In this document: piece by piece, positions 42,612-59,595 of the stretch
How positions within the stretch are numbered: the stretch's first letter is position 1
Layout: every line of letters begins with the position of its first letter
Assembly: GCA_963747935.1 (NCBI GenBank)
Contig: CAVVGY010000009.1
Coordinates: 72,752 to 136,751 of the forward strand
Reading direction: 5' to 3'
DNA length: 64,000 nt
Origin: an uncultured Thermoleophilia bacterium
GTDB taxonomy: Bacteria > Actinomycetota > Thermoleophilia > UBA2241
Translations under genes and position numbers: made by a program
The notes under the pieces: generated by a model
Database searches by the model: none
What the model saw: the letters and a program-made list of their open reading frames with translations, nothing else
What the model was told of the DNA's origin: nothing

Positions 42612-43294
42612 GCGCGTTCTCCGCTCGACAGTCCGTGATTCCAGTCCGCCGGCGACCCGCTGCGCCTGCCAGGTAACACGCGATAATCTCCGTTATGTAA
42701 AGTAACAGGTCAGAAACCCCGGCCGGCCTCTTCGCCAGGCCCGTCACCGGCAGCGGGCTCACAGCGACTCCTCCCCGGGATCTTCACCTTCTTCACGGAC
42801 GTGGACGCAGTTGCCGGCTTCTCCGGTAGTGCGTCCGACCGTGCGCGCACAAGTCCTGGCACCCGGACCGATTCCTTCTCGCATGACCAACGCGCGCGAC
42901 GCCACGTGTCGTACGGTCCAGACTTCCACCGGCCCGGCAGCGCACCGGCCTCCCCCACACCACCTCCGTCCTTGGATTGGACTGTCGGATCATCCCGTCC
43001 TGAGTCGGACAGACGGCGCTGGTGGCGTCGTTGGGGCTGAGCGCGTCCGACGCCCACCTCCTGGTCACGCGCAAAGGCTGTGGCTGGGTCACTCCGTCTC
43101 GAGAGCCGCTACGGCTAGATTAGTAGCATGTGCCGACTACCTGATTCGTAGGCGGGCCTCCCGCAACAAGGACCACACGTTCCCGGCTCAACGGTGACTG
43201 TGCGACAGCCGGACCGACGGGCAATGACACCAGAAAGGACGGGTCTCCAGCAGGATGAGGCCCGCGACGTGTCATCACTGGATGAGGAGAGACC

Positions 43295-44323
43295 ATGCTG
43301 CGCAGACGCCCTAAAGCGTCCATTGCCGTTGCGATCACGGTGGCTGCCGCAGTCCTCGCGGCCCTTGCGGCAGCAGGCTGCAGCATCCGCCCCGCATCCG
43401 CCTCCACGCCGAAGGGGTACTCGTTCGCCGCCTACGGTGACATCAGGCCGGATTCGAGCTCGCCGACTGCTGACTACGGACCCGGCTTCCATCGCGTCAT
43501 GGCGAAGCTGGGCAGCCTGCCCCACGCCTTCGACGTGGTTGTGGGCGACATCATCCAGAACGCCTCCGGGGGCTACACGCTGGCCACGACCGAGCAGAAG
43601 TACAACGACATGCTGGCGCAGCTCGGACCGGACGCGCAGGCGCGGCATGTCTGGGTTGTGGGCAACCACGAGGGCGTGCAGACACAGACGGGGGCCGGCG
43701 CCTTCTCGGCCGTCCTCCACCCCGGTCCCCGCTGGTACACCTACAGCTACGGCGCGGGCACGGCCGATCAGCCCAGGGTGGTCGTGATCGTCCTCTCGAC
43801 CGAAGAGGCAGGCATGACGGGCCGCATCGGCTACTACGGCGTGGGCGACAGCCGCAACTCGGCCCAGGCTGACTTCCTGGTGCACGCACTGCAGACGCAC
43901 GCGGGCGACCAGCACACCTACCTCGTCGTCGCCATGCACCGGCCCATCACCGATCCAAAGCCGAACGAGTCCTTCGACGTCAACGGCGAGCGGCTTCCGC
44001 TGGAACACCTGTTCGCCAGGTACGGCGTCGACCTCGTGCTGAACGGCCACGTCCACGCGTACGTGCGGCACGTGATGCCCAACGGCCTGCCGTACATCAC
44101 CGTAGGGACCGGCGGGTCCCCGCTCTACAGCCCGCGCACCACCGTGACCACGTCGCCCGGCACGGACGCCCGCAGGATCTTCGGGCACTACGGTTTCACG
44201 CTGTTCCGGGTGGGCGGCGACGGCATGGCCGGCACCACCTTCAGCCTGGACACCTCGACCGGGAAGTGGCGCGTCGCCGACCGGTTCAGTGTGCCGCAGC
44301 AGCAGCCGCTGCCGGGCGGCTGA
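43295..44323 (+). CDS. secreted calcineurin-like metallophosphoesterase (lipobox-like signal peptide)
   Basis: MLRRRPKASIAVAITVAAAVLAALAAAGCS..., then YSFAAYGDIRPD, VVVGDIIQNA, VVGNHE, VVAMHRP and LNGHVHAY motifs. It is a paralogue of 54565..56034. Confidence 0.7.
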   Translation: MLRRRPKASIAVAITVAAAVLAALAAAGCSIRPASASTPKGYSFAAYGDIRPDSSSPTADYGPGFHRVMAKLGSLPHAFDVVVGDIIQNASGGYTLATTEQKYNDMLAQLGPDAQARHVWVVGNHEGVQTQTGAGAFSAVLHPGPRWYTYSYGAGTADQPRVVVIVLSTEEAGMTGRIGYYGVGDSRNSAQADFLVHALQTHAGDQHTYLVVAMHRPITDPKPNESFDVNGERLPLEHLFARYGVDLVLNGHVHAYVRHVMPNGLPYITVGTGGSPLYSPRTTVTTSPGTDARRIFGHYGFTLFRVGGDGMAGTTFSLDTSTGKWRVADRFSVPQQQPLPGG

Positions 44324-44432
44324 ACGCGTCGACGATTGTGCGCCGGGCCTGCTAAGTGCGAGGGAAAGGAATGGCATCCCGCTCAACACCAACGACCGCC
44401 CGTTCAGTACCTGGACCAGAACCGAGGACACC

Positions 44433-45764
44433 GTGAAAGGCAGCAGTTCTCCGAACGGCAGAAGCGAGTACCGGCAGGCCGTCATCCTTGTGGGAGGTGA
44501 GGGCAGCCGGCTGCGACCGATCACGTCGCGGGTGCCGAAGCCTGCCGCTCCCCTGCTGGGGCGGCCGTTCGTCAGCTACATCCTGGAGAACCTGGTCCAC
44601 CACGGAGTGGACCGCGTGGTCTTCTCCACCGGCTACCTCGCCGCCGCCATCGAGGCGGAGGTCGGCGACGGAGGCCGGTACGGCCTCGATGTAAGGTACG
44701 CCTTCGAGGACTCGCCCCTCGGGACCGCGGGAGCCATCAGGAACGCCGCGTCCGCGCTGGAGCCCGGCGGCTTCCTCGTGCTGAACGGGGACATCCTGAG
44801 CGACGCCGACCTGAGCGCCGTCGTCGCGTTCCACCGGGAGAGGCAGGCGGTCGCCACGCTGCTGACCACGGCGGTCGACGATCCCAGCCGCTACGGCCTG
44901 GTTGACGTTCGGGCGGACGGCCGGGTCGCGAGCTTCGTCGAGAAGCCCGGTGACGACTGGCCCGGTCCAGGCCTCATCAACGCCGGTGTGTACGTCCTCG
45001 AGCACGAGGCGCTCGACCTCATCCCACCTGGGCGCGAGTTCAGCATCGAGCGCGGCGTCTTCCCCTCACTGGCCGCCTCCGGCAGTCTCTACGCCTTCGT
45101 CGGCGCGGGCTACTGGCGCGACATCGGCACACCTCAGAGCTACCTGCAGGCACATTTCGACCTGCTGCGCGGACCGCTTGGGGTCGGGGCTCGCCGCGGG
45201 CTAGACGACGGCCACGACGGGGACGGGCAGGGACTCGTCTCCATCTCGCCGGATGCGCGCATCGATCCCGAGGCACAGCTCGTGCCTCCCGTGCACGTGG
45301 CCGGCGACGCCGTCATCAAGCGCGGCGCGACCGTCGGTCCGCTGACGGTGGTGGGCCGCGGCGCCCGGGTCGGCCGAGGAGCCCTGGTGGTCGCCTCCGT
45401 GCTCCAGGATGGCGTCAAGGTCGGTCGGGACGCGGTGGTGGACCACAGCGTCATCGTGCGGCGGGCCACCGTCGGCAGCGGATCGCACTTGAGCGATGTG
45501 GTCATCGGAGAGGCCTGCAACGTCGGCAAGGGAAACGTCCTCGCGAACGGGCTGCACCTCTTCCCTCAGGCGATCCTCCCGGACCGCAGCGTCAAGTTCC
45601 GTGACTCCGGAGCACCGGCGCTGGCCGCACCCGCCACCGCACTCGATGCAGCGGATCGGCAGGAGTCTTCCGGTGTGGACCGGCAGGTTTTGGCAGTGGC
45701 GGACCTGGAGGACCTTGCGGCCGCGTCTCCGGGAGAGCTGGGAGACCTCGAGCCGGCGGCCTGA
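44433..45764 (+). CDS. NDP-sugar pyrophosphorylase, GDP-mannose pyrophosphorylase-like (nucleotidyltransferase + left-handed beta-helix)
   Basis: GTG 44433. AVILVGGEGSRLRPITSRVPKPAAPLLGRPFVSYILENL...LGTAGAIRNA...NGDILSDADL...YWRDIGTPQSY, then hexapeptide-repeat-like V/G-rich repeats. Confidence 0.8.
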   Translation: MKGSSSPNGRSEYRQAVILVGGEGSRLRPITSRVPKPAAPLLGRPFVSYILENLVHHGVDRVVFSTGYLAAAIEAEVGDGGRYGLDVRYAFEDSPLGTAGAIRNAASALEPGGFLVLNGDILSDADLSAVVAFHRERQAVATLLTTAVDDPSRYGLVDVRADGRVASFVEKPGDDWPGPGLINAGVYVLEHEALDLIPPGREFSIERGVFPSLAASGSLYAFVGAGYWRDIGTPQSYLQAHFDLLRGPLGVGARRGLDDGHDGDGQGLVSISPDARIDPEAQLVPPVHVAGDAVIKRGATVGPLTVVGRGARVGRGALVVASVLQDGVKVGRDAVVDHSVIVRRATVGSGSHLSDVVIGEACNVGKGNVLANGLHLFPQAILPDRSVKFRDSGAPALAAPATALDAADRQESSGVDRQVLAVADLEDLAAASPGELGDLEPAA

Positions 45765-45790
45765 GGAGGCGCCGCAGGGCGCTCTCCTCA
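45762..45790. terminator. GC-rich hairpin between convergent genes (no clear U-tract)
   Basis: TGAGGAGGCGCC...GGCGC(T)CTCCTCA forms a 12-bp stem with one bulge. It spans the stop of the nucleotidyltransferase and faces the 3' end of the minus-strand phosphatase gene. Confidence 0.3.
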
Positions 45791-45812
45791 GGCCGCCTCG
45801 GCCCACTCGGTC

Positions 45813-47231
45813 TCAGTAGCCGTACGTCACGACGTCGAACGACTGCCCGAGCGAGTTGACCGGCATCACGGTCACCTGGTTGGAGGTCACTGTGACCTTG
45901 AGGAAGCTGAAGACCTGCGCTGGCGAGGTCGGCGGCTTGGCGGCTCCTGTCGCGCTGCCCTTGTTCGATGAGTAGCTCCAGCCGATGCCGTAGGCGTCGA
46001 ACGGACTCGTCCCGTGCTGGCCGATGGGCTCGAGCTTCTCCCCTCCCGCCCCGGTGACGTAAGACACGAAGCTCTCCCCGGGTTGCTGGAAGTTGCGCTC
46101 ATAGATGTGGGCGTGGCCGTTGAAGACGAACTGCACGCCGTACTGCGTGAGAAGCGCCGCCAGGCTGTTCGGCCCATGGAGGTAGCTGTCGGTGGTCTCG
46201 CTCGAGTTGTCGGAGTACATGGGGAAGTGGAAGACCGCGAACTTCAGCGCGGCCGGGTGGGTGGCGAGGTCGTTGGCCAGCCACTGGTACTCGGCCGCGG
46301 TCGGCGCCCAGTGCGCGGCGTGGTCGTCCGAGTACAGAGTCCCCGTCCCGGTGTTCGTGTTCGCCCAGGCGGCCGTGAGCACGTAGTAGCGCGCAGTTCC
46401 GATGCTGAACGCGTACCACGCGGACGGGTAGTTCGCCGTACTGGTGCCCGGCACGCTGTAGGAATCCATCTGATAGCGCCCGGCCGACAGTACGGGCGCC
46501 GTGGGCTGTGGCCAGATGTTGAGGAACGTGCTGTTGAAGCCGTGGTTGCCCGGCGACCCGAACATCGACATGACGTCGCCGACGTTCTTGTAGAGCGACG
46601 GGCCGAAGACGTCCGAGATGTTGGTGCCCGTCTGGAACAGGTCGCCGTAGTTGGCCTGGTTGCCACTTGGATAGGCGACGTCGCCGGCGCTGAGGATGAA
46701 GGATGCGCCGCTCGAAGCGATCTGGCTCATGAGGTTGGCCTGGTCTGTCGTGCTGGTGCCGGCTCCCCAGTCGCCGAGCACCGCGAAGGAGTACGAGCCG
46801 GAGCTCGGCGGCGTGGTGAACGACGGAGAGGTATCCACGCCGAGCAGGTCCACCACCGGCGTGTTGAAGAACACGCGGTAGCTGTACACCGTACCGGGCT
46901 GCAACCCGGTGATCTTGGCCTTCCATTGGTACTCGGCCACCCCGTTGACCGAGATCGACGTCTTGCTGCCATTCGCCTTGTGCGCGGTGGCCGACTCGAT
47001 GCCGGCCTGGCCGTAGGTCGCATAGCCGGTGGTCTGGCTCCGGTCGGTGGCCCAGTTGATGGTCGCGTTGTACGTCGTGCCCGCGCTGACCACGTCGGTC
47101 AGATACGGATACCGCTTCAGCTGCGGCTGACTTGCCGCGCTGACGGTGGTCTGGGCGAGTGCGAATCCCGCAAGGGCCACAGCGACCAGGATCCCGGTCA
47201 GCCCGACTTGGACGGTCCAGCGTCGCATCAC
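45813..47231 (-). CDS. secreted purple-acid-phosphatase-like metallophosphoesterase
   Basis: Signal peptide, an N-terminal FN3-like region (YPYLTDV...YSYRV), then GDWG, SAGDVAY, GNHG, HFPMYS and NGHAHIYER motifs. Confidence 0.75.
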   Translation of the reverse strand: MMRRWTVQVGLTGILVAVALAGFALAQTTVSAASQPQLKRYPYLTDVVSAGTTYNATINWATDRSQTTGYATYGQAGIESATAHKANGSKTSISVNGVAEYQWKAKITGLQPGTVYSYRVFFNTPVVDLLGVDTSPSFTTPPSSGSYSFAVLGDWGAGTSTTDQANLMSQIASSGASFILSAGDVAYPSGNQANYGDLFQTGTNISDVFGPSLYKNVGDVMSMFGSPGNHGFNSTFLNIWPQPTAPVLSAGRYQMDSYSVPGTSTANYPSAWYAFSIGTARYYVLTAAWANTNTGTGTLYSDDHAAHWAPTAAEYQWLANDLATHPAALKFAVFHFPMYSDNSSETTDSYLHGPNSLAALLTQYGVQFVFNGHAHIYERNFQQPGESFVSYVTGAGGEKLEPIGQHGTSPFDAYGIGWSYSSNKGSATGAAKPPTSPAQVFSFLKVTVTSNQVTVMPVNSLGQSFDVVTYGY

Positions 47232-47401
47232 TCATCTTCTCCTGGTGTCGTCTTGTGAGGGTCGTGTGGTGTCAGTCTCTTGTTCCTCCTGCCCGCGCTC
47301 TGCTTCGCAGCAACGTTGTGAGCCCGGCTTCGCTCCAAACCAACGTCAGCGCGTTAGTCGTCCGGGCCGTTGGGCACTCGCAAAGACAAGGACAGGACAA
47401 C

Positions 47402-47416
47402 GGCGTGTCACACGCC
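47402..47416. promoter_or_regulatory. perfect 15-bp palindrome GGCGTGTCACACGCC in a divergent promoter region (candidate operator)
   Basis: It lies in the 238-bp spacer between the minus-strand phosphatase gene (start 47231) and the GtrA-fusion gene (start 47470). Confidence 0.3.
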
Positions 47417-47469
47417 GGTCGGACAGCGGCGACCTTCGCCGGAGATCACAGCCCCCGGGAGGCAGCAAC

Positions 47470-49146
47470 ATGAGAGCGGCGAAAGCTGCCGCGGAGAGCG
47501 CGACCATCACGCTCGGGCATTCCCCAGAAGAAGTCACGTCGGAAGCAGTCACGTCGGGACGCATGAGGACCGCGTTCGGATTCGCGGTCGTCGGAGCCAC
47601 CGGCATCTTCGTGAACCAAGTGGCACTGTGGCTGCAGGTCCGCTACCTGGGCGTCAACTACGCCGTCGCCGCGATCGTGGCGACGCAGGCCTCCACCACC
47701 TGGAACTTCTCGCTCAACGAGCTCCTCGTGTTCCGCGGGCGGGACGCAAAGCACGGACTGGCCGGTAGGTTCCTCGCCTTCTGGGCGGTCAACACCGGGA
47801 CGCTGCTCCTGCGTGTCCCCACGCTCGCCCTGCTCGTCTCGGTGCTGCGCATCCACTACCTCATCGCCAACCTCATCACGCTGATCGCGCTGTTCGTCGC
47901 GCGGTTCGTGGTCAGCGACCAGCTGATCTGGCGTCAGTCCGCGCCCCGGCAGGACGGCGCCGGTGCACCCGCTGGCACGGCCTCCGATGCGGGCGGGAGC
48001 TTCGCAACAGGCCAGGCTGGACGGAGCTGGAAACGCGGCTTCGCCCACACCTACGACATCCACGGGTTCGCTTCGATCGCATCAGACGTCCCGCTGCCGG
48101 AACTGAAGTACTTCCGCGACGCCTCCGTGGACGGCGGGGCCGACATCGAGATCCGCGTGGGCGACATCCTCAGTGGGCCGCGGCGCCGTATCGAGATCAC
48201 GGAGACCCCCGGCGTGATGTTGTACCAGGAGCACCTCGGCCGTCTGGGCGCCAACTTCCGCGTCGAGATCTTCGACAAGCTGAAAGTGACCGTCACCCCG
48301 CTCCTGGCCCACTCCCCACACGTCGTCTACACCAACATCGTGGAGGCGCTCCTGCGCTTCGTCCTCGCTTCTCGGGACTACGCCCTGCTCCACTCTGCCA
48401 CCGTGGTCATCGACGGCCAGGGCGTCATGCTGTCGGCGCACACCGACACAGGAAAGACCGCGACCATCCTGCGCATGCTGCGGGAGCACGGCGGCACCTT
48501 TCTCTCTGACGACATGACCATCGTGACGGGAGACGGCCCCGTCTACTCGTATCCCAAGCCACTGACGATCAGCCACCACACGCTGGCGGCCATCGACGGT
48601 GCGCTGCCCTCGCTGACGGAACGCACGCAGTTGGCCCTCAAGAGCAGGCTCCACTCGAAGGGCGGCCGGTCGACGGGGCTGCGGCTCTCGCGGATGAACC
48701 TGCCGATCATGTCCATGAACGCCGTGACGCAGGCGCTGGTCCCACCGCCCAAGTACCAGGTGTACGACCTGGTCCCGTGCGAGATCGGGGCCACGGCGAG
48801 GGTGCGCCACCTGGTGCTCATCGCCCGCGGTCCCCGCAAAGACGAGTCCGTGAACACCGACGAAGCCCTGGCGCAGCTCATCGAGAACACCGACGACGCC
48901 TACGGCTTCCCGCCGTTCCGCCAGCTCGCTCCCTTCGTCCAGCTCGGCGGCGAGACCTACCCGAAGCTGCGCAAGAAGGAGCGGGCCATCATCGAGAGCA
49001 TGCTGCTCAGCGGCGTGAGGGTGCGGCGCATGGTGCGCGACGACTTCTCATGGGCGGACGACATCCCCGCCTACGTGCGCAGCCACGAGGGCGTGCCTGA
49101 CCTGGCCGACTTCCGCCGCGAGGTCCCGGAACGCAGGGCGGCGTGA
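47470..49146 (+). CDS. fusion protein: N-terminal GtrA-like 4-TM domain + C-terminal HPr-kinase-like P-loop domain
   Basis: ATG 47470 lies 8 nt after GGGAGG. The GtrA-like part reads FGFAVVGATGIFVNQVALWL...WNFSLNELLVF...FVARFVVSDQLIW. The C-terminal part contains LLHSATVVIDGQGVMLSAHTDTGKTATILRMLREHGGTFLSDDMTIV, which is colinear with the HprK nucleotide-binding core (Walker A A-x4-GKT). Confidence 0.6.
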   Translation: MRAAKAAAESATITLGHSPEEVTSEAVTSGRMRTAFGFAVVGATGIFVNQVALWLQVRYLGVNYAVAAIVATQASTTWNFSLNELLVFRGRDAKHGLAGRFLAFWAVNTGTLLLRVPTLALLVSVLRIHYLIANLITLIALFVARFVVSDQLIWRQSAPRQDGAGAPAGTASDAGGSFATGQAGRSWKRGFAHTYDIHGFASIASDVPLPELKYFRDASVDGGADIEIRVGDILSGPRRRIEITETPGVMLYQEHLGRLGANFRVEIFDKLKVTVTPLLAHSPHVVYTNIVEALLRFVLASRDYALLHSATVVIDGQGVMLSAHTDTGKTATILRMLREHGGTFLSDDMTIVTGDGPVYSYPKPLTISHHTLAAIDGALPSLTERTQLALKSRLHSKGGRSTGLRLSRMNLPIMSMNAVTQALVPPPKYQVYDLVPCEIGATARVRHLVLIARGPRKDESVNTDEALAQLIENTDDAYGFPPFRQLAPFVQLGGETYPKLRKKERAIIESMLLSGVRVRRMVRDDFSWADDIPAYVRSHEGVPDLADFRREVPERRAA

Positions 49147-50799
49147 ATGAGGTTCTCGTCTGCTGACAGCACCAGCACTCTACCCGAGGCGCTGCGGCGC
49201 GAGGGCCGGCCCGAGCAGGCCCGCCACGCGGCAGAGGCCGCCCCGGCACCTCGAACGACGGGAGCCGGGGCGGGTATCGCCCTCAGCGTCACCGCCCGGC
49301 GTGTCCTGATCGCCGCCGCCGCCGGCACCGCGATCGCGGCGGCGCTCGGCTTGCGACTGTGGCACCTCAACGCGCTCGGGTTCAACAGCGACGAGGCGGC
49401 CTACGCCGGCCAGGCGGCCTCGATCGCCGGAGACCAGCACCTGTCCGGGCTGTTCCCGGTGTTCCGCGCGCATCCTCTCCTCTTTCAGCTCCTGGTCTCG
49501 ATCATCTACCGGGTGCACGTCGGCGAGCTGGGGCCCCGCCTGCTGGCGGTCGGATTCGGGGTCGCGACGGTGGTCGCGGGGTACGCGCTGGGCGCGCGCA
49601 TCTACGGGCGCACGGCCGGCCTCCTGACGGCCCTGTTGCTCGCCGTGATGCCGTACCTGGTCATCGTCAACCGCCAGGCGCTGCTGGACGGACCGATGGT
49701 GTTCTTCTCAGTCATCGCTCTGTGGCTCCTGGCGAAGTTCGTCGCCGAAGAGCGCCCTGCGTTCCTCTACGCCGCCGGCGGGGCCCTGGGGCTCGCGTTC
49801 CTGACCAAGGAGACGGCCATCCTGCTGGTGCCGGCCGTCTACGCGTTCCTCGCCGTGACGCCCAGCGTGCGAGTCAGGCTCAAGGACCTCGCGCTGTCGC
49901 TGGGGTGCTTTGCTCTGGTCGCTCTCCCCTATCCCCTGTCGCTGGCGATAGCCGGAGGGTCGAAGACGGGGCAGCACTTCCTGGTGTGGCAGCTCTTCCG
50001 TCCGGCCAACCACGCCTGGGACTTCTACCTCTCCGTGGTCCCGTCCGCGATGGGCATCCCTCTCGTCGTGCTCGCCGTGGCGGCTCTCGTGATGGTCGCC
50101 CTGGGGCGGACGTGGAGCTGGAGAGAGTCGCTGCTGGTGAGCTGGATCGTCGTCCCGGCGTTCTTCTTCGAACTGTGGCCGGTGAAGGGCTTCCAGTACT
50201 TGCTCCCGGCCGCCGCGCCGGTGGCGGTCATGGCGGCCGGGCTGCTCTCGGGGGCCGCGGCGAGGGGCTTGAAGGGCCTCGGCGACTGGCGGTTCTGGCA
50301 GGCCATGAGGGCCGGCATCGCCGTCGCAGTCATCGTGTCCCTCGGGGTCGTCAGCTGGATCGCCGTCACGACCTCGGGCTCGACCTCGTTCCTCGCCGGG
50401 ACGGGAGGCGTGCCCGGCGGCCGCGAGGCCGGGAACTGGATCCGGACGCACACCCCGCTGGGCGCCGAGTTCTTCTCCATCGGGCCGTCGATGGCCAACA
50501 TCCTGGAGTTCACAGGACAGCGCCGGGTCCTGGCGCTCTCGGTGAGCCCGAACCCCCTGCACCGCAACCCGGCCTACACGCCGGTCCCCAACCCGGACCT
50601 CCTCGTGCGCGGCAGCGAGGTCCAGTACATCGTCTGGGACTCCTACTCGGCCGCGCGCACGACGTACTTCACCCAGCGCCTCCTGACCTTGGTGAGGCGC
50701 TACCACGGGAGGCCCGTCCACGTGCAGACCGTGCCGGTGGAGGCAGGTGGCAGGTCTGTGCAGCGGCCCGTCATCATCATCTACGAGGTGCGGCCATGA
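49147..50799 (+). CDS. GT-C fold glycosyltransferase (PMT_2 / ArnT-like, family 39/83-type)
   Basis: 550 aa, polytopic. It has the first-loop DE motif (LGFNSDEAAYAG), ...RLLAVGFGVATVVAGYALGARIYGRTAGLLTALLLAVMPYLV..., and a soluble C-terminal domain. The ATG abuts the stop of the upstream gene. Confidence 0.8.
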   Translation: MRFSSADSTSTLPEALRREGRPEQARHAAEAAPAPRTTGAGAGIALSVTARRVLIAAAAGTAIAAALGLRLWHLNALGFNSDEAAYAGQAASIAGDQHLSGLFPVFRAHPLLFQLLVSIIYRVHVGELGPRLLAVGFGVATVVAGYALGARIYGRTAGLLTALLLAVMPYLVIVNRQALLDGPMVFFSVIALWLLAKFVAEERPAFLYAAGGALGLAFLTKETAILLVPAVYAFLAVTPSVRVRLKDLALSLGCFALVALPYPLSLAIAGGSKTGQHFLVWQLFRPANHAWDFYLSVVPSAMGIPLVVLAVAALVMVALGRTWSWRESLLVSWIVVPAFFFELWPVKGFQYLLPAAAPVAVMAAGLLSGAAARGLKGLGDWRFWQAMRAGIAVAVIVSLGVVSWIAVTTSGSTSFLAGTGGVPGGREAGNWIRTHTPLGAEFFSIGPSMANILEFTGQRRVLALSVSPNPLHRNPAYTPVPNPDLLVRGSEVQYIVWDSYSAARTTYFTQRLLTLVRRYHGRPVHVQTVPVEAGGRSVQRPVIIIYEVRP

Positions 50800-52172
50800 A
50801 CCGCATCCGCCTCGTCGTCCGCACGGCGCTCGTCATCATCGCGGCCGGCGTCCTGTGTCTGGCTGCCGCGGCGTCGCCCGCGCTCTCGTCCGGCACGGCC
50901 TCTCACGCCCCCCGAACGCCCATCAAGCACTTCGTGGTCGTCATGCAGGAGAACCACACCTTCGACAACTACTTCGGCACGTACCCCGGAGCCAACGGCA
51001 TCCCTGCGGGGACCCGCATGCCCTTGGACACTGCGTCCACGTCGACCGGCTTCGCCACTCCCTTCCACATCGGCGGCTCCGCGGCCACCGACCTCAACCA
51101 CAGCATCGCGTCCGCCGAGATCGCCTTCCACGGCGGCCGTATGGACGGGTTCTCGGCCGCACAGGACGTCGGCGCTCCGGCGCGACAGGTGATGGGCTAC
51201 TACAACGGGAGCGACTTGCCCCTCTACTGGAACATGGCCGACCAGTACGTGCTGTTCGACCGCTTCTTCTCCTCGGCGATGGGAGGCAGCCTCATCAACC
51301 ACTACTACTGGGTAGCCGGGGGCATCGGTGGCGTCCAGGGAAAGACGCTGGCTCGCCCCCTGGACGTGCCGACGATCTTCGACCGGCTGCAGAAGGCCGG
51401 CGTGTCGTGGAAGTTCTACGTGCAGAACTACGACCCGAAGATCAACTACAAGACGGTCCCGCCGACGACCGTCGCGAACTCAGGCTCCCAAGTGGTCTGG
51501 GCGCCCCTGCTCGACATCCCTCGCTTCGTGAACAACCGTCGGTTGGCGTCTCACATCGTCGACCTGAAGCAGTACTTCACCGACCTCCACAACGGGACCC
51601 TTCCGGCCGTCTCGTACATCGTGCCGTCCGGTGCGAGCGAGCATCCGCCGGGGAGCGTCCTGGCAGGCCAGCAGTACGTCAGCGGCCTCGTGAACTCCCT
51701 GATCGCGAGCAGTTCGTGGAGCAGTTCCGCCTTCATGCTGGCCTACGACGACTGGGGCGGGTGGTATGACCACGTCGTGCCGCCGCGACGCGACGCGAAC
51801 GGCGACGGATTCCGCGTGCCCGCCCTGCTGGTCAGCCCCTACGCCCGCCGCCACTTCGTCGACCACACGACGCTCGACTTCACCTCGATGCTCCAATTCA
51901 TCGAGAAGAACTGGAACCTGCGCCCGCTCACGCGCCTCGACGCGACGAGCCAGAGCATCATGGGCGCGTTCGACTTCAAGCAGTCCCCGAGACCGGCGGC
52001 CTTCATCTCGATGTCGCGGTCGGAGGGTCCCGCCGTTCGGACGACCGCGATGCGGGATATCGCGCTCTACTCCCTCTACGGCCTCGGCGCGCTCCTTGCC
52101 GTCGGCTTCATCGTCGTGGCCCGGGCCGCCAGTCGTCGCCCGCTTCGCCGCCCGGACAGGAGCGCAGGCTGA
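50796..52172 (+). CDS. phosphoesterase family protein (phospholipase C / AcpA-type acid phosphatase) with C-terminal TM anchor
   Basis: ATGA overlap with the GT-C gene. Signal peptide, then IKHFVVVMQENHTFDNYFGTYPGANG, ...LAYDDWGGWYDHVVPP...GFRVPALLVSPYARR..., and a terminal hydrophobic helix. Confidence 0.8.
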   Translation: MNRIRLVVRTALVIIAAGVLCLAAAASPALSSGTASHAPRTPIKHFVVVMQENHTFDNYFGTYPGANGIPAGTRMPLDTASTSTGFATPFHIGGSAATDLNHSIASAEIAFHGGRMDGFSAAQDVGAPARQVMGYYNGSDLPLYWNMADQYVLFDRFFSSAMGGSLINHYYWVAGGIGGVQGKTLARPLDVPTIFDRLQKAGVSWKFYVQNYDPKINYKTVPPTTVANSGSQVVWAPLLDIPRFVNNRRLASHIVDLKQYFTDLHNGTLPAVSYIVPSGASEHPPGSVLAGQQYVSGLVNSLIASSSWSSSAFMLAYDDWGGWYDHVVPPRRDANGDGFRVPALLVSPYARRHFVDHTTLDFTSMLQFIEKNWNLRPLTRLDATSQSIMGAFDFKQSPRPAAFISMSRSEGPAVRTTAMRDIALYSLYGLGALLAVGFIVVARAASRRPLRRPDRSAG

Positions 52173-53297
52173 TGGCGCGCCGTCCGCTACTCCTGCGCCG
52201 CGTCGGGCCTTTCGCGCTCGGGATCCTGGCGACGCTGCTCCTGCTGGCCGCGTGGCCGGCACCCTCGCGAGCGGCGCCCGCGGCGACCCTGCAACTGCAG
52301 ACCGTGCCTCGACTTCCTGGTGTGGGTCTGATGCTCGACGGCGTCACCCACCGGACGGACTCGTCGGGTTCGCTCCGGATCCGCACCTTCGCAGGCACGC
52401 ACAGCCTCAAGCTTCTCCCGACCACAGCCCTCCCGGGCGGCAGGATCGCACAGCCCGACGGCTGGCTCGGGCAGCGCGGAGTGCCGCAACAGATCACGCT
52501 GCCGTCCGGCACGACGGTGGAACACGTCTCGTTCATCGTGTCGCGGCCGGTGACGGTGACGGTCACCGACTATTCGGGCCGGCAGATCCCGCAGGGGCAA
52601 GATCGACCGGGTGACCCTCGTCAACAGCCTGGGGCAGCAATTCGTCCTCAGGTCTGGGTCGCCGAGCATCGTGCTCCCCCTCAACGGGGTGATCCACCCG
52701 CGCACGGGCTACGTGTCGGTGCCCCTCCGGTACTCCGTCCGCTCGGTCCTCGTCCGGGGCGGCGAGGTGGTGCACCGCAGCAGCCAGTCCTTTGCCGCCA
52801 GCGCTCCGGAGCCTTGGGTCATCAAGGGCCTGATCTTCCCGCTGCGCATCCAGGTGCGGGATGCGCTGTTCGGCTTCGCGGTCGGACGTTCTGTCGTGCT
52901 CGCACCGCGGTTCGGCACGAAGAGGACGCTGGAGCTCGGCTCGGGACACGACGTGCGCGTCGAAGGCCTGGCCCGAGGGACGTACGACGTCACCGCGCAC
53001 GGCCCCGGCCTCGGCCTCACCTCGGTCACGACGCTCTCGCGACCCCAGGAGGCCAAAGTCCTGCTCTTCTCCTGGGTCGACGTCGGCGTGGTGGGGGCGT
53101 TCGCCCTGGTGTTCCTCGTGGGGCTTCCTCTCGTCGGCGGACGCCTCGCGCGTCGCCCCGGCTCCCGGATGGTGCGGTGGCGGGAACGGCGGGTCCGGGA
53201 GGCGGCGCCCGCGGACGCAGGCGCGCGGGCGCAGGCAGCGCCTCCTCTGGACGCCCGGCGCTCAGCGGACACCCCTCCCCAAAGAAGGGCGTCATGA
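52172..53297 (+). pseudogene. hypothetical secreted, C-terminally anchored beta-sandwich-repeat protein; frame broken once at the GGGG run 52594-52597
   Basis: Signal peptide (LLLLAAWPAPSRAAPA), then ..VTVTVTDYSGRQIPQG in one frame. It continues as KIDRVTLVNSLGQQFVLRSG...RGTYDVTAHGPG...VDVGVVGAFALVFLVGLPLV (TM) in ORF 52611..53297. Removing one G restores a single ORF. Confidence 0.5.
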
Positions 53298-54532
53298 GCC
53301 GCGGGGGGCGTCACCGCCGCGGCCGGCCGCTCTCTCTGGCCACGGGCCTGCTCGTGGTCACGGCCCTCGCGGCCCTCGTCCCGGCGCTGCTCGTCTCCAG
53401 CGCGAAGGCGTCCCCGAGCGGCGGCGCCTCGCCACGGTCCTCCCTCGGCATCACCGGCACCGCGGCACAGCCGATCCCCGTGCTGGCCTACTACTACATC
53501 TGGTACAACCCGAGCTCGTGGAACAGGGCGAAGATGGACTACTCCGCCCTTGGCCGCTACTCCTCGAGTGACGTGGCGGTGATGCGGCAGCAGGTGGAAC
53601 TGGCCAAGAAGGCCGGCATCAGCGGCTTCCTCGTCAGCTGGAAGGACACGCCGGTGCTCGACGCCCGGCTCGCGGCGCTGGTCAAGGTGTGCGCCGCCGC
53701 GCACTTCAAGCTCGGCATCGTCTTCGAGGGCCTCGACTTCCACAGGGCCCCGATCCCGATGGCAGAGGTCCAGAACAGCTTCAGCTACTTCACCCAGCAG
53801 TACGCCGGCTCGCCGGTGTTCGACTGGTCCGGCAAGCCGATCGTCATCTGGGCGGGCACGTGGGGCTACACGAGCAGCCAGCTCGCGTCCATCACCAACG
53901 CCTACAGGCCCCGGTTGACGATCCTGGCGTCAGAGAAGCAGGTCAGCTCGTACGACGCCATCGCCCCGCTCTTCGACGGCAACGCGTACTACTGGTCGTC
54001 GGTCGACCCGCTCCACACGCCGAGCTATCAGAGCAAGATGGATGCCTTCTCCGCCGCGGTCCACAGCCACGGCGGCCTCTGGATCGCGCCGGCCGCACCG
54101 GGCTTCGATGCGACCCTGCTCGGCGGCACACGGGTCATCCCTCGCCGTGGCGGCCAGACGCTGCGCCTCGAGATGAACGCTGCGCTGGCCTCCTCGCCCG
54201 ACGCCATCGGCCTGATCAGCTGGAACGAGTTCAGCGAGAACTCCGCGGTGGAGCCCAGCCGCATGTACGGCTCCTCCACCCTGAAGACGCTCGCCGCCAT
54301 CCAGCACGCGCATCCCGGGGCCATCCCGAACTTCGACTCGAGCAGCCCGGCAGGGTTCCACGCGGGCGTGAGCCCCTTCGTCATCCTGGGCGCGGTGGTC
54401 TTCATCTTCGCCGGCAGCGCGCTGGCGCTGGCCCGCAGGGAGGGACGCCGGCGCCGAATGACGGCCGGCGCCGGACAGACGCGCGCCGGCCCTGCCCCGA
54501 AGATCCGGAGTGCGTCCCGGAGACCGAGGTAG
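53294..54532 (+). CDS. GH99-like (endo-alpha-mannosidase family-like) protein with signal peptide and C-terminal TM anchor
   Basis: ATGA overlap with the upstream gene. VLAYYYIWYNPSSW...GRYSSSDVAVMRQQVELAKKAGISGFLVSWKD...LISWNEFSENSAVEP is colinear with the GH99 pattern FYYxWY...G.YSS.D..V...H......IGV...SW...NEWHEGT.IE. Confidence 0.55.
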   Translation: MSRGGRHRRGRPLSLATGLLVVTALAALVPALLVSSAKASPSGGASPRSSLGITGTAAQPIPVLAYYYIWYNPSSWNRAKMDYSALGRYSSSDVAVMRQQVELAKKAGISGFLVSWKDTPVLDARLAALVKVCAAAHFKLGIVFEGLDFHRAPIPMAEVQNSFSYFTQQYAGSPVFDWSGKPIVIWAGTWGYTSSQLASITNAYRPRLTILASEKQVSSYDAIAPLFDGNAYYWSSVDPLHTPSYQSKMDAFSAAVHSHGGLWIAPAAPGFDATLLGGTRVIPRRGGQTLRLEMNAALASSPDAIGLISWNEFSENSAVEPSRMYGSSTLKTLAAIQHAHPGAIPNFDSSSPAGFHAGVSPFVILGAVVFIFAGSALALARREGRRRRMTAGAGQTRAGPAPKIRSASRRPR

Positions 54533-54564
54533 GGCCGGCGCGGCGACCTGCGTTCAGCGTGCCG

Positions 54565-56034
54565 TCACGGTGTGGGTGCGAACACGCGAGCCTCGACGAT
54601 CGAAGCGCGTCCGCTGCCCGACCTCAGCCCCTTGACGAGCACACGGATGTAGCGAGCCGACCGGCCTGGCGTCCACTTCTTCCACGCGTGCCCGTCGTTC
54701 GAGCGCTGCACCTGCCACGCATAGGTGCGCGGGGCGCCGGTGGGATCGAAGAACCGGACCTTCACCCGGCTCACGGTCCGCACGCTGCCGAGATCGACTC
54801 TCCACCATTGGGGGAAGGTCGCCCTCGCTGCCGTCCACCGCGTCGCGGTGAGGCCGTCGTTCGCGTATCTCCCGGCGCGCCGGCGGCTCGATGCGCTCGT
54901 CGGGAGCCCTTGGGAGACCAGCACTGACGTCGGGCTCGGACTGGGCGATGGGGTCACCGTCGGTGTCGTCGTGGGCGTCGGGGACGGCGTGACCCCCTCC
55001 GGCGCCTGCTGTGCCACGTCGAAGCTGTCGCCGACTCGCCACACCCAGTCGGTCTCCGAGGTCACGAAGGTATCCGCCTTCAGGTGCCCGGCCGTCGTGA
55101 CCTGGAACCTGGTGAACCCGAACTGCTCGTGCGTGGAGTCAACGGAGCCGATGCGCGACGCGTCGGCGCCCGGCGACGTGTGCGCAGCGTACATCTCATC
55201 TTTGGCCTCGGCTCCACCCATGCCCTGCACGAGGTAGGTCGTGCCGTCAGGCATCAGGTGGCGCACGTAGGCGTGCACGTGGCCCGCCAGGACGAGATCC
55301 ACGCCGTATTTGGCGAAGAGTTGCTCCAGCGCCTGGCGCTCGGCCGGGTGCGTGTCGTAGCCCTCGCCGGGCTTCGGATCGGCGATCGGGTGGTGCATGT
55401 TGACGACCAGGAAGGTGTTGGAGTCGTGCGCGTGAGCGCGGAGTTGCGACACCAGCCAATCGCCCTGCGCGCTGTTGGATGCGCTCCCCTCACCGGCGTA
55501 GCCGACGGTGCCCAGGTGCCCCGTCTCATAGGTCGACAGGTTGAAGACGATGATGCGCGGGTCTGACGCGGTGCCCGCGCCGTGAGTGGACACGTCGTAG
55601 TGAGCGGGATGGATGTTGCTCTCCCAGCCCGCGGCGCCCGCCGCCGACGTCCCTACGGCTTCGTGGTTGCCGACGGCGTAGCTCTTGGGGACGGCACGAG
55701 TGGCGCCCAACGCCGTGAAGAAGTCGGCGTACTTGGCGTCGACCGTCGCCGTCGTGTCGGTCGAGGCGACGTTGACGAGGTCGCCGACGACGACCTCGAA
55801 GGCGTGCGGCTCGGCGGCCATCTTGTCACGCACGTGCTGCCAGCCGGCCGAGTAGGAGGCGTGCAGTGCCTGACTGCCGGGGCGGATGTCGCCCCATGCG
55901 ATGAACGAGTACGCCACCGGGTCGCTCGCGGCCCCCGCTCTTGAAGGCGGGCGATGAAGAGCCCACGCGCCGAACGCGGCGACCAGGAGCGTGAGAAGTG
56001 TGACGAGGGTGAGGGTGAGACGGGTGTGGGACAA
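54565..56034 (-). CDS. secreted metallophosphoesterase with C-terminal F5/8 type C (discoidin)-like domain
   Basis: YSFIAWGDIRPG, VVVGDLVNVA, VGNHE, VVNMHHP and LAGHVHAY motifs, making it a paralogue of 43295..44323. A Thr/Pro/Ser linker leads to ..YANDGLTATRWTAARATFPQWWRVDLG..YIRV. Confidence 0.75.
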   Translation of the reverse strand: MSHTRLTLTLVTLLTLLVAAFGAWALHRPPSRAGAASDPVAYSFIAWGDIRPGSQALHASYSAGWQHVRDKMAAEPHAFEVVVGDLVNVASTDTTATVDAKYADFFTALGATRAVPKSYAVGNHEAVGTSAAGAAGWESNIHPAHYDVSTHGAGTASDPRIIVFNLSTYETGHLGTVGYAGEGSASNSAQGDWLVSQLRAHAHDSNTFLVVNMHHPIADPKPGEGYDTHPAERQALEQLFAKYGVDLVLAGHVHAYVRHLMPDGTTYLVQGMGGAEAKDEMYAAHTSPGADASRIGSVDSTHEQFGFTRFQVTTAGHLKADTFVTSETDWVWRVGDSFDVAQQAPEGVTPSPTPTTTPTVTPSPSPSPTSVLVSQGLPTSASSRRRAGRYANDGLTATRWTAARATFPQWWRVDLGSVRTVSRVKVRFFDPTGAPRTYAWQVQRSNDGHAWKKWTPGRSARYIRVLVKGLRSGSGRASIVEARVFAPTP

Positions 56035-56137
56035 GGTACGTCCCTCCTATGAAGCTGTGGGACAGGATAACGAGTGTCCTACCACTCGATACCCCGCAGG
56101 GTACACGGGCAAGGGACGGAGCGCCACCGAAGAGCTG

Positions 56138-57241
56138 TCAGCGCCCCGTCCCCCGCTCGAGAGCGGGCAGGTTGTTCGCCAGAGCGCGCACGTAGGCGTT
56201 GCCGAAGCGCGCGCCGTTCGGGTTCAAGACCTCTCGGCCGCTCGCATTGATCTTCGTCTGCCGGCCGGGCTCCACGGAAGTGCCCTCGCCCCACTCGTTC
56301 CACGTCTCGACGAGGTTCCAGGGGGTGCCGGCGGCCCTCATCCGGCGCACGGCCGTCTTGAATGACCTGAGGTTGCGCCGCAGCCTGACCCTCTCCCCCG
56401 CCGCGTCCTTCCAGAAGCCCGGGCTCACGAACGTCGAGTGGCGGGCGAAGCTGCCGTAGCGGCTCGACGGGGCGTACTGGTGCCAGGAGTCGGGCTGGTT
56501 CGGGTCGGAGGCGTACCCCTGGTACACCTTGAGCACGTAGTAGAACGCGCCGCCCGTCTGCGCGACAGCTTCCCTCCATCTCCGGCTGGTCCCCGCATCG
56601 TCTGACCCGTTGCCGTACACGAAGACGACCGGCTTGCCGCCCACCTTGAGGAAGTAGGGGCTGGAGGCGTAGGCGCTCTTGATGTACTCCAGGTCGGCCA
56701 CGAGCTGGCTGACCGACGGGTCACCGAAGCCCTCCTGCTCGTAGTACAGAGCGAAGCGAAGGTTGGGATAGGGGTTGTCGGCGCGCTTCATGAAGTCGTC
56801 GAGGTAGGTCTTGAGCGCGCCGTCCTGCTTGGTGCCGCGGCCGAACCAGGAGGCGATGGCCACCTCCTGCCTCGCCTCCGCCATCTTGGCGACTTCCCAC
56901 TTGAAGGTGCCGTAGTCGAGACTGCTGTAGAGCTCCGCCTTGGGATCGAAGCCGGGATGGAGATCCGGCAGGTAGTGGCTGAACCAGCGGTACGGCGGTC
57001 TGTTCCCCCCGTCCTGCCAGTAGCTGTAGGAGCCGTCGCAGGCGGCGTTCTTGTACCAGGGGTAGAAGAATGACGCGTAGTACGGCGCCGAGGGCTGGAA
57101 GGCGGCCGCGGCGCGTGACGGCGCGGCGGCCGCCGGGCCTTGAGCGCTGGCCGGCGACGTGGCCAGCGCTGCCGGCGCAATGATCGAGACGACTGCTGCT
57201 GCGACTGCGACTGCGGTGAGGGTGAGTCTGAAGCGACGCAC
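56138..57241 (-). CDS. secreted GH99-like (endo-alpha-mannosidase family-like) protein
   Basis: GTG 57241 lies 5 nt after GGGAGGAG. Signal peptide, then YYASFFYPWYKNAACDGSYSYW...ELYSSLDYGTFKWEVAKMAEARQEVAIASWFGRG...VETWNEWGEGTSVEP. Confidence 0.6.
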   Translation of the reverse strand: MRRFRLTLTAVAVAAAVVSIIAPAALATSPASAQGPAAAAPSRAAAAFQPSAPYYASFFYPWYKNAACDGSYSYWQDGGNRPPYRWFSHYLPDLHPGFDPKAELYSSLDYGTFKWEVAKMAEARQEVAIASWFGRGTKQDGALKTYLDDFMKRADNPYPNLRFALYYEQEGFGDPSVSQLVADLEYIKSAYASSPYFLKVGGKPVVFVYGNGSDDAGTSRRWREAVAQTGGAFYYVLKVYQGYASDPNQPDSWHQYAPSSRYGSFARHSTFVSPGFWKDAAGERVRLRRNLRSFKTAVRRMRAAGTPWNLVETWNEWGEGTSVEPGRQTKINASGREVLNPNGARFGNAYVRALANNLPALERGTGR

Positions 57242-57400
57242 TCGTGCTCCTCCCGGGGTCGGCCTCCAGCTCGTGGCCAGAGGCGTATGCGCGGAACTGG
57301 TAACGGATTCGGGCGGGTCAGCCACGGATTCGGCGCGTGGTCGCCCTCACCCTTGGTATCGACGTCGTCGACGCCGGCTTGAGGCTGGCTCGCGCCGCGC

Positions 57401-57619
57401 TCAGCGGCCCGTGCCCTGCTCGAACGCGGGCAGGTTGCCGGCCAGAGCGCGCACTTGGGCGTCGCCGAAGGGAGCGCCGTTGGGGTCGGCCACCTCCCTG
57501 CCGGCTGCGTCGATCAGCGTCTGCGCGCCGGGTTCGACGGACGAGCCCTCGCCCCACTCGTTCCTGAGAAGGACTGCGACTGCGGTGAGGGCGGGTCTGA
57601 TGGAGCGGTGCACGCACAC
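57401..57619 (-). pseudogene. remnant of a tandem GH99-like paralogue: signal-peptide codons fused in frame to the last ~50 codons
   Basis: The 72-aa ORF ...RPALTAVAVLLRNEWGEGSSVEPGAQTLIDAAGREVADPNGAPFGDAQVRALAGNLPAFEQGTGR* matches both ends of 56138..57241 (RLTLTAVAVAA... and ...NEWGEGTSVEPGRQTKINASGREVLNPNGARFGNAYVRALANNLPALERGTGR*). The same GGGAGG Shine-Dalgarno context is retained. Confidence 0.6.
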
Positions 57620-57780
57620 ACCTCCCGGGCCGGCCTCTGCATCCTGAGCAGGGGCTTTCCAAGAACGCGGCGCACGCTATACAACTCGTTGACCGACTGC
57701 CAACCGCTGATTATTGGGATGGATACTCGTACTCAGAAGGGCCGAGCGGACCGAGCGCTCAGACGGACGCCTGGGTACGC

Positions 57781-58309
57781 TCAGTAGGTGATCAGGCTGA
57801 AGACGTCGTAGCCCTCGAGCTTCTTGCGGCCCTCGAGGCCGGAGAGCTCGATGATGAAGGCGACGCCGACGACGTTGCCGCCGAGCTTCTCGACCAGCTC
57901 GATCTTGGCCCTGGCGGTGCCGCCGGTTGCGAGCAGGTCGTCGTGCACCAGCACGTTCTGGCCCGGCTTGATGGCGTCGGCGTGCACCTCGAGCTTGTCG
58001 GTGCCGTACTCGAGGTCGTACTCGGCGGCGATCACCGTCGTGCGGCAGCTTGCCGGGCTTGCGCGCGCAGACGAAGCCGGCGCCGAGGCCGTAGGCGACG
58101 GCGGCGCCGAGGATGAACCCGCGCGCCTCCGCGCCCATGACGACGTCCACGTGCTTGCCGACGCCGTATTCGACGAGACGGTCGACGGCCTCGTGGAGCG
58201 CCTTGGGCTCCTGCAGCAGCGGCATGATGTCGCGGAAGAGGATGCCCTCCTTGGGGAAGTCCGGGATGTCTCGGACGTGGGCGGCGAGGTCGAAGCCGGC
58301 GTCTGTCAT
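57781..58309 (-). pseudogene. apt: adenine phosphoribosyltransferase, frame broken once near 58040
   Basis: [32 protein letters not shown]...[31 protein letters not shown] in ORF 57677..58309. It continues as (TT)[41 protein letters not shown] in ORF 57781..58035. Confidence 0.85.
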
Positions 58310-59574: not shown

Positions 59575-59595
59575 GCTATTTCGCCGCCTCGGGCA

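Follow-up and report, generated by a model that had tools for sequence, protein, structure and literature searches.

The analysed DNA, referred to as the window, is a stretch of 64,000 nucleotides (G+C about 70%) from contig CAVVGY010000009.1 of an uncultured Thermoleophilia bacterium. Between a NUDIX gene (42117-42611) and apt it carries ten genes, designated g1-g10, and one gene remnant. The conserved unit of this locus is the translationally coupled series g4-g8, accompanied in about half of the compared loci by a purple acid phosphatase-like (PAP-like) enzyme, and g1, g2, g9, g10 and the remnant are lineage-specific additions. The balance of the evidence tips slightly towards g4-g8 being a variant of the three-component lipid-linked-sugar glycosylation systems, equipped with its own hydrolase and phosphoesterases. 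The operon, which is conserved mainly among Actinomycetota of soil, probably serves to attach a sugar polymer of the mannose type, possibly bearing phosphate, to the cell exterior and to trim it there; mannose as the sugar is moderately supported by the similarities of the encoded proteins.

The gene inventory was determined from the lists of open reading frames (ORFs) and third-position GC plots, and the domains were assigned by Pfam and NCBIfam profile searches. The ten genes and the remnant reported by the first-pass annotation were recovered together with every domain it had named. The genes of the conserved unit are the following (TM, transmembrane; PLC, phospholipase C):

g4, 47470-49146, plus strand: GtrA_DPMS_TM domain (PF04138, 69 bits) with a kinase-like C-terminus
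g5, 49147-50799, plus strand: predicted GT-C transferase; PMT_2 75 bits, PMT (GT39) 31.8 bits
g6, 50796-52172, plus strand: AcpA/PLC-type phosphoesterase (PF04185, 269 bits)
g7, 52172-53297, plus strand: signal peptide, triple beta-sandwich and TM anchor; frameshifted
g8, 53294-54532, plus strand: GH99-like protein; GH99 35.1 bits, GH71 35.9 bits

An operon linked by 1-4-nt overlaps had been proposed for 47470-54532. The overlaps were found at the g5/g6 (4 nt), g6/g7 (1 nt) and g7/g8 (4 nt) junctions, and g4 and g5 abut with an overlap of 0. Start/stop overlaps of 4 nt were also present in L002, one of the close relatives of the locus. The boundaries of g1, g5 and g8 were identical to the gene calls of the source assembly. 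According to the hydropathy scan, all the proteins of the locus except g2 and g4 have an N-terminal signal or TM segment, and g6, g7 and g8 have C-terminal TM anchors. The hydrophobic segments of g4 correspond to the membrane helices of its GtrA domain.

The genome scan of species representatives starting from g4 resulted in 39 loci, and homologues were counted by tblastn over 35 loci with at least 7 kb of sequence downstream of g4 (scan loci and three context look-ups). Homologues of g5, g8 and g6 were detected in 32, 29 and 28 of the 35 loci, respectively. The g7 homologues, found in 24 loci, are divergent and hence undercounted. The genes g5, g6 and g8 occurred together in 28 of the 35 loci, all 28 of Actinomycetota including Acidimicrobiia, and the core is thereby co-conserved in relatives rather than scattered; scattered genes had been named beforehand as one of the findings that would speak against the earlier reading. 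The g3-type PAP-like enzyme, with a homologue in 17 loci and often located directly downstream of the GH99-like gene or within the operon, is a recurrent sixth component of the system. The other genes were rare: g10-like genes were present in 6 loci, g1-like genes in 4, g2 in 2 and g9 in 1. The previously proposed 14-kb unit is thus retained for g4-g8, often with the PAP-like enzyme; the lineage-specific remainder comprises g2, the phosphoesterases g1 and g9 (two of the four) and the GH99-like g10.

The loci belong to Streptomyces, Micromonospora, Amycolatopsis, Kibdelosporangium, Lentzea, Dactylosporangium, Oryzobacter and Rhodococcus rhodnii, and further to Acidimicrobiia, Chloroflexia, Limnocylindrales and Dormibacterota. 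With the loci of Chloroflexia (L027), Limnocylindrales (L040) and Dormibacterota (L036), the core was only partial within the available flank. The three contexts looked up around g4 homologues shared the order g4, PMT_2, PF04185, an unannotated protein of about 410 residues and GH99-like, and their flanks differed from each other. Since the core order is kept in other genomes and in other flanking contexts, the clustering is not due to chance. More than 3040 homologues of g4 and more than 3500 of g8 were detected at E<=1e-5 in public genomes and metagenomes. When three distant g8 homologues were used as anchors, the same operon was found in all three cases, one of which (L047) shows no PMT_2 gene.

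Members of the core are also joined to each other. GT2, GtrA, kinase-like and PMT_2 parts were joined in P0157, and GtrA, kinase-like and PMT_2 parts in P0168, P0179 and P0246; each of these may be a genuine fusion or the result of gene calls having been merged in a high-GC contig. The g7 and g8 homologues lay within one ORF in six loci, and real g7-g8 fusions seem to exist in other lineages. A long ORF which would give g7 and g8 as a single 786-residue protein in the window was rejected on the basis of the third-position GC frame switches and the overlap of the g7 stop with the g8 ATG.

Protein g4 consists of a four-helix GtrA/DPMS-type membrane domain, the helices of which are seen in the AlphaFold2 (AF2) model (predicted local distance difference test score, pLDDT, 77), and a cytoplasmic P-loop domain of about 370 residues. 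The membrane domain gave a profile match of 3.5e-16 to the TM domain of Pyrococcus furiosus DPMS (5mlz), which was also the top hit of Foldseek. With the C-terminal domain, which was modelled with confidence, Foldseek retrieved PEPCK (E about 1e-5) and HprK/P (E about 1e-3) with a probability of 1.0. The Walker A motif 'AHTDTGKT' and the 'FLSDD'/'SDD' motif were invariant in 16 sequences. No Pfam Hpr_kinase_C match was obtained for the g4 of the window, and the HprK equivalog profiles scored 16-24 bits against cut-offs of 200-240 (TIGR00679, 15.9 against 240). The domain appears to be P-loop phosphotransferase-like and is not a member of HprK/P. The family of the kinase-like domain comprised 164 cluster representatives at E<=1e-30, where the domain occurs alone, with GtrA, or with GT2 and GtrA. 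In most of the named genera the orthologue of g4 is a GT2+GtrA+kinase-like protein of 790-900 residues, and the GT2 domain of such fused orthologues matched P. furiosus DPMS at 9.3e-26 compared to 4e-8 for ArnC.

Protein g5 has about 11 hydrophobic segments followed by a C-terminal extracytoplasmic domain, and the acidic motif 'NSDEAxYAG' of its first loop is conserved across the orthologues. The nearest NCBIfam models were Agl23, ArnT and glycopolymer families, not Pmt, and the sequence search of g5 against PDB gave no match. On these profile matches, g5 is predicted to be a PMT_2-type transferase of the GT-C fold.

The extracytoplasmic protein g6, with its N-terminal signal and C-terminal TM anchor, was aligned to AcpA (2d1g) at 6.5e-36. 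The QEN, GGS and YDDWGGWYDHV segments were identical; the QEN, GGS and YDDxxxxYDH residues of AcpA are presumably the metal ligands and the nucleophile. The scores of g6 were below both NCBIfam equivalog cut-offs, 184.7 against 580 for the phosphocholine-specific PLC (TIGR03396) and 183.4 against 363 for the Burkholderia-type acid phosphatase (TIGR03397). In protein g7, three Ig/CnaB-like beta-sandwich domains in tandem are followed by a TM anchor and a cytoplasmic tail rich in Arg. In the AF2 model of its homologue P0121 (pLDDT 79.5) an all-beta ectodomain lies between a signal helix and a TM helix, and Foldseek matched this model to pilin and TIE-type beta-sandwich arrays (E 4e-11). Based on the model, g7 appears to resemble the tandem Ig/CnaB-type domains of Gram-positive pilins.

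Protein g8 is a (beta/alpha)8 GH99-like protein, anchored to the membrane at both its N- and C-terminus. It was similar to BxGH99 (4ad1 in PDB) over about 250 residues at 5.6e-7, and the residues corresponding to E333, E336 and Y252 were identical. In BxGH99, E333 is the general base for the 2-OH, E336 the general acid/base and Y252 a conserved active-site tyrosine (PMC6001782). As the mechanism of BxGH99 uses the 2-OH of the substrate, the conserved residues point to manno-configured substrates for g8. The 'SWNEFSEN' motif of g8 was near-invariant in 31 orthologues. All the domain assignments of the first-pass annotation, including GH99-like and GT-C, whose reassignment it had listed as a way for its reading to fail, withstood the comparisons with hidden Markov model profiles, PDB and structures.

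The observations described above cover the domains of the proteins and their folds, the retained catalytic residues, the predicted membrane segments, and the co-conservation and fusion of the genes. In the following mechanism we infer which sugar is used, what accepts it, which way each reaction runs and whether phosphate is cycled. Polyprenyl-phosphate-mannose would be formed on the inner side of the membrane, and in most orthologues the DPMS-like GT2 domain fused to g4 would carry out this step; in the present genome a separate donor synthase is assumed, possibly supplied by the adjacent GDP-mannose-pyrophosphorylase-like g2. The lipid-linked sugar would be handled by the GtrA/DPMS-type membrane domain of g4 and used on the outer face by the GT-C transferase g5 to build or decorate an envelope glycan. 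Beside g5, the three single-pass proteins g6, g7 and g8 would face outward. By analogy with exopolysaccharide operons that contain a cognate hydrolase, g8 may serve as the system's own endo-alpha-mannosidase-type hydrolase which cuts or trims the product. Protein g7 could be a stalk or scaffold, a reading that fits with its fusion to g8 in some loci. Protein g6 and the PAP-type enzyme may act, by cleavage or by transfer, on phosphoester groups of the lipid carrier, the lipid anchor or the glycan, and the PEPCK/HprK-fold domain of g4 may act as a phosphotransferase or nucleotide-sensing module coupled to the donor supply. A kinase-fold domain inside, two phosphoesterase families outside and metallophosphoesterases bearing carbohydrate-binding modules (CBMs) suggest that the glycan, its lipid anchor or the carrier bears a phosphoester which is first formed and later processed. 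The gains of the core in this lineage are g1, g2, g9, g10 and the decayed g10 copy.

Several points weigh against the proposed glycosylation system. The sugar is assigned by similarity, and no acceptor gene was identified. The literature searches found no experimental data on any member. The GH99 and GH71 scores of g8 were barely above the thresholds (35.1 against the cut-off of 33 and 35.9 against 34, respectively; the GH99 score of g10 was 38.1 against 33), and due to this the specificity of g8 could differ. A minority of the g6 orthologues have QSN, QGG, QGD or QAN in place of QEN, and YDG, YDS or YEQ in place of YDD. Judging from these substitutions, some lineages may have a PF04185 protein without catalytic activity, and because of the degenerate QEN motif the catalysis by g6 is perhaps not universal. 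No GT2 was detected anywhere in the 64-kb window by tblastn, for which the GT2 domains of three fusion proteins and a separate GT2 served as queries; the donor synthase is therefore assumed, not seen. In 5 of the 35 loci (L009, L013, L022, L027, L036) the g4 homologue was accompanied by little or no other core. Finally, the frameshift that interrupts g7 in this assembly could mean that this genome has a defective operon.

A more specific version of the chemistry, which we hold as no more than tentative, assigns the PEPCK/HprK-fold domain, through its physical connection to a DPMS-type synthase and the GtrA module, as a lipid-directed kinase acting on the polyprenol carrier or on the lipid-linked mannose. 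The phosphorylated donor would be exported, its phosphate processed outside by the PLC/AcpA- and PAP-type enzymes, a wall mannan or phosphomannan built by the GT-C transferase and tailored by the GH99-like enzyme. If so, the operon would represent an unrecognised, 'kinase-coupled' branch of three-component glycosylation which produces an envelope polymer in many soil Actinomycetota and in some relatives from other phyla. It is unlikely that the acceptor is a protein, with g5 as a non-canonical protein O-mannosyltransferase and the GH99-like enzymes trimming O-glycans on glycoproteins of the envelope. The protein O-mannosylation of actinobacteria relies on polyprenyl-phosphate-mannose, g5 also matches PMT (GT39) at 31.8 bits, and a glycoprotein had been raised as an option in the earlier reading of the locus. 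In contrast, the PMT_2 score was 75 bits compared to 32 bits for PMT, with the nearest NCBIfam families other than Pmt as given above, and the two GT-C paralogues found in L007, L014, L037 and L044 suit a polymer with more than one linkage. Moreover, an endo-acting enzyme of the GH99 type needs at least a disaccharide-substituted mannose.

The phosphoesterases, up to four of which are extracytoplasmic, also allow the locus to be read as a Pho regulon module, where they would scavenge phosphate, either environmental or from polymers of the wall, and the glycosylation genes would replace or remodel phosphate-rich polymers; this reading is doubtful. Of the 6 orthologous loci scanned, 3 had PHO-box-like tandem 11-mers upstream of their first gene, with a background of 1-4 hits per 21 kb in an ad hoc scan of which both the motif and the threshold were chosen by the analyst. 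At the same threshold no PHO-box-like site was found in the promoter regions of the window, and no pst, phoU or phoR genes are located nearby. The phosphate-scavenging alternative of the first-pass annotation is thus left with weak and inconsistent hits in some orthologous loci. Furthermore, g6 is translationally coupled to the GT-C and GH99-like genes and is membrane-anchored, not released, and the cytoplasmic kinase-like domain and the GtrA module have no role in scavenging. The synthesis and trimming of a mannose glycan, the other reading put forward at that stage, fits better with the GtrA/GT-C core, the DPMS-like GT2 of the orthologues, the GH99 residues and the CBM-bearing phosphoesterases. 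Bacterial GH99 enzymes act on yeast alpha-mannan, and the two GH99-like genes with retained catalytic residues (for g10, only the NEWGEG motif was seen) and the phosphoesterases with carbohydrate-binding modules could likewise belong to a catabolic locus which degrades fungal phosphomannan of the yeast type, comparable to the mannan utilisation loci of Bacteroides. The absence of a sugar importer, an exo-mannosidase and a catabolic regulator in or beside the locus, the tethering of g8 by two TM segments, and the co-conservation and occasional fusion of the hydrolase with biosynthetic membrane components make this very improbable. It is hardly credible that the genes form no functional unit and that envelope genes have come to lie together by chance in a variable region: the locus and its closest relative L001 have different flanks and g1, g2, g9 and g10 are lineage-specific, but the core is collinear in dozens of genomes, its stop and start codons overlap and its members are fused in some lineages.

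The best PHO-box-like repeat of the scan, GTTCATTTCGC TGTCATTTGCC, was located in L022 about 140 bp upstream of the ORF coding for the GT2+GtrA+kinase-like protein. In L009, L013 and L022 (genomes of Streptacidiphilus, Streptosporangiaceae and Streptomyces), the GT2+GtrA+kinase-like gene lies at 10001-11600 with no other core gene within 10 kb.

The frameshift of g7 is of the +1 type and is caused by an extra G within a GGGG run near 52595-52598, as determined from the switch of the third-position GC frame. At this site the window has one base more than L001. After the repair g7 is 374 residues long, in comparison with 373-389 residues of the intact homologues, the best of which is 84% identical at 100% coverage. 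The apt gene (58309-57781, minus strand) likewise changes frame, near 58035: the part matching positions 1-92 of the apt profile (N-terminal half) is read from the ATG at 58309, and the part matching positions 84-170 (C-terminal half) belongs to the frame of the ORF 57781-58305. Since the two frameshifts are less than 6 kb apart and one affects a housekeeping gene, both are probably assembly indel errors rather than signs of decay. A third frameshift suspected in the aminotransferase/hflX region was not supported.

The genes located around the conserved unit are the following:

g1, 43295-44323, plus strand: lipoprotein-like calcineurin-type metallophosphoesterase (Metallophos 40 bits)
g2, approximately 44436-45764 (start uncertain, ORF open from 44289), plus strand: cytoplasmic sugar-1-phosphate nucleotidyltransferase (NTP_transferase 169 bits, with LbH)
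g3, 45813-47228, minus strand: secreted PAP-like protein with Pur_ac_phosph_N (PF16656, 39 bits) and Metallophos (PF00149, 45 bits)
g9, 54565-56034, minus strand: secreted protein with Metallophos and discoidin (F5_F8_type_C_2, 60 bits) domains
g10, 56138-57325 (start uncertain), minus strand: second GH99-like/WbsX-like secreted protein (GH99, PF16317, 38.1 bits)
remnant, 57401-57799, minus strand: decayed tandem duplicate of g10

The metallophosphoesterases g1 and g9 are paralogues with 47% identity. Protein g1 has a signal segment and a lipobox-like 'AAGC'. A close copy of it (79%) was present in L001 only, and three other loci had distant metallophosphoesterase matches of 29-31% downstream of the GH99-like gene. 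In g9 a Pro/Thr linker is followed by a discoidin domain, a NedA-like carbohydrate-binding domain. The g9 gene is an insertion in comparison with the otherwise collinear L001, the corresponding region being 1667 bp here and 143 bp there. Carbohydrate-binding modules on metallophosphoesterases were thus found as discoidin in g9, and as CBM96 together with Ig in L042 and L046.

The best NCBIfam match of g2 was NF052502 (man1P_GTase, mannose-1-phosphate guanylyltransferase) with 317 bits against the cut-off of 440. Its top PDB matches included the GDP-mannose pyrophosphorylases 7whr, 7x8j and 7d72 (about 160 bits), and a UTP-glucose enzyme scored equally. The gene was located beside the operon only among the close relatives (L001-L003). 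Protein g3, transcribed divergently from g4, matched the PAP structure 6git at 2.7e-7. The metal-ligand motifs read from its translation were GDWG, GDVAY, GNHG, FHFP and GHAH, the third of which has G where D or E is usual.

The two GH99-like proteins of the locus, g8 and g10, are only 23% identical, and the 'NEWGEG' of g10 corresponds to 'NEWHEG' of BxGH99 in five of six positions. The remnant is an internally deleted tandem copy of g10 in which the 3' end and a short 5' piece have been retained. The direct repeats are 57401-57564 versus 56138-56301 (79% identity) and 57572-57600 versus 57203-57231 (93% identity), and the match at the protein level extends to 57799, covering g10 residues 277-395 at 46% in tblastn. 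The Arg-rich ORF 57318-57662, previously taken for the remnant, is off-frame and without a Pfam hit and was rejected. The identity of the remnant, the frameshift of g7, the absence of the orthologues' GT2 from g4 and the PEPCK/HprK fold of the kinase-like domain are additions to the first-pass annotation.

Several loci displayed variants of the gene set. In L007, L014, L037 and L044 the operon is rearranged and has two GT-C paralogues, with the order g4, GT-C', GH99-like, GT-C, PF04185, beta-sandwich. In L019 (6908-8179) and L033 (11736-13010) the gene next to a GT2-less g4 codes for a processive-type GT2 (Glyco_tranf_2_3, PgaC/IcaA-like) that is not DPMS-type, which suggests a different polymer chemistry in that sub-branch. 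In Micromonospora and one other genome (L016, 16997-18544; L017, 16588-18501; L042, 16950-19787; L046, 10206-13796), the genes that follow the operon code for proteins with CBM96 and a right-handed beta-helix and for very large metallophosphoesterases with Ig, fn3 and CBM96 domains. These would be phosphoesterases and possible lyases or hydrolases directed at a glycan.

The locus is situated just past a conserved backbone of nusA, infB, pnp, rnj, ftsK, recA, rny, miaA, dapF and hflX. Both RNase J (21304-23022) and RNase Y (32823-34367) are encoded in this backbone, upstream of the locus; RNase Y is not usual in classical Actinomycetes, a hint at a deep-branching lineage within Actinomycetota. 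The flanks of the locus share nothing with those of L001. No terminal repeats bound the locus, thus a mobile-element origin is not supported, and nothing points to carriage on a plasmid, tblastn of g4 against plasmids being without a match. The Rfam and tRNA scans of the window were empty. In the 683-bp region between the NUDIX gene and g1 (42612-43294) none of the ORFs was convincing, the longest one gave no Pfam hit, and neither an Rfam match nor a tRNA was found; the region may contain the promoter or regulatory region of g1-g2. Past apt, MerR-family, zinc-ribbon+FHA and DUF4388 genes are located on the minus strand (58366-60497), followed by a protein with VanW and PG_binding_4 (61871-63946).

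The first-pass annotation had known of no characterised pathway with this composition, and no characterised counterpart was found here either. The literature searches combining GtrA, HPr kinase, GT-C, GH99, PLC and PAP gave no paper on the gene set, and the search for ScmC resulted in unrelated acronyms only. The annotations of the source genomes are generic ('GtrA family protein', 'dolichol-phosphate mannosyltransferase', 'Glycosyl hydrolase family 71' or '99', 'hypothetical protein') and none of them names a pathway. The carriers of the core include cultured Streptomyces, Micromonospora, Amycolatopsis and Rhodococcus, and the locus of the window is one elaborated, possibly damaged copy of the system. 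If the proposed glycosylation system is true, antibiotic-producing and soil bacteria would have a pathway for an envelope glycan that has so far gone unrecognised; this pathway would provide an endogenous bacterial role for GH99-type enzymes, and it would link a PEPCK/HprK-type phosphotransferase to lipid-linked sugar metabolism. The polymer could then matter for phage adsorption, antibiotic susceptibility and the phosphate economy of the wall.

By analogy, exopolysaccharide operons with their own hydrolase and the GacH-type phosphotransferases which decorate glycans offer the same combination of a membrane synthase or transferase, a cognate hydrolase and an enzyme of the alkaline-phosphatase superfamily. 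In contrast, the protein families differ throughout, and g6 may hydrolyse rather than transfer. In comparison with the GH99 enzymes, g8 shares the similarity to BxGH99 over about 250 residues with the conserved E333, E336 and Y252, but the E-values are 1e-5 to 1e-7, the GH71 match is equal, g8 is anchored at both ends and its gene is located in a biosynthetic operon of a Gram-positive-type bacterium rather than in a catabolic locus or the Golgi. Protein g6 is a strong match to the AcpA/PLC family (Francisella AcpA 2d1g, PlcH-type PLCs) with identical AcpA motifs, and differs from it by the C-terminal TM anchor, the GT-C and GH99-like partners and the sub-equivalog scores. The C-terminal domain of g4 shares the fold, the Walker A and the 'DD' motif with HprK/P, ATP-dependent PEPCK and the HprK-related peptide-maturation kinases (TIGR04352, TIGR04355, ScmC), to which the profile matches were faint; unlike HprK/P and the peptide-maturation kinases, it is tethered to a sugar-lipid membrane module.

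The closest parallels of the whole arrangement are found among the systems that handle lipid-linked sugars. The actinobacterial Ppm1/Pmt pathway of protein O-mannosylation and the Ppm1/GT-C pathway of lipomannan likewise rely on an extracytoplasmic GT-C transferase and a lipid-linked sugar in high-GC Gram-positive bacteria, and a GDP-mannose supply gene is located nearby; unlike in the Ppm1/Pmt pathway, g5 is PMT_2-type and not a canonical Pmt. To our knowledge, actinobacterial Ppm1 has neither a GtrA-like TM domain nor a kinase domain, and the Ppm1 pathways are not encoded together with GH99-like or PF04185 genes. P. furiosus DPMS (5mlz) is the best solved relative of both the membrane domain of g4 and the GT2 of its orthologues, and the domain order is alike, but P. 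furiosus DPMS lacks the kinase-like domain and the g4 of the window lacks the catalytic GT2. With the three-component systems (GtrA/GtrB/GtrC of enterobacteria and phages, CsbB-GtcA-YfhO of Bacillus and Listeria, GacI/J/K/L of streptococci), the present operon has in common the GtrA four-helix module, the GT-C transferase and, in most orthologues, the GT2. It differs from them in the fusion of GtrA to a 370-residue PEPCK/HprK-fold domain, in the added AcpA/PLC-type, beta-sandwich and GH99-like genes, and in that the copy of the window is without any GT2. The common logic would be that of a lipid-linked monosaccharide which is made inside and used outside.

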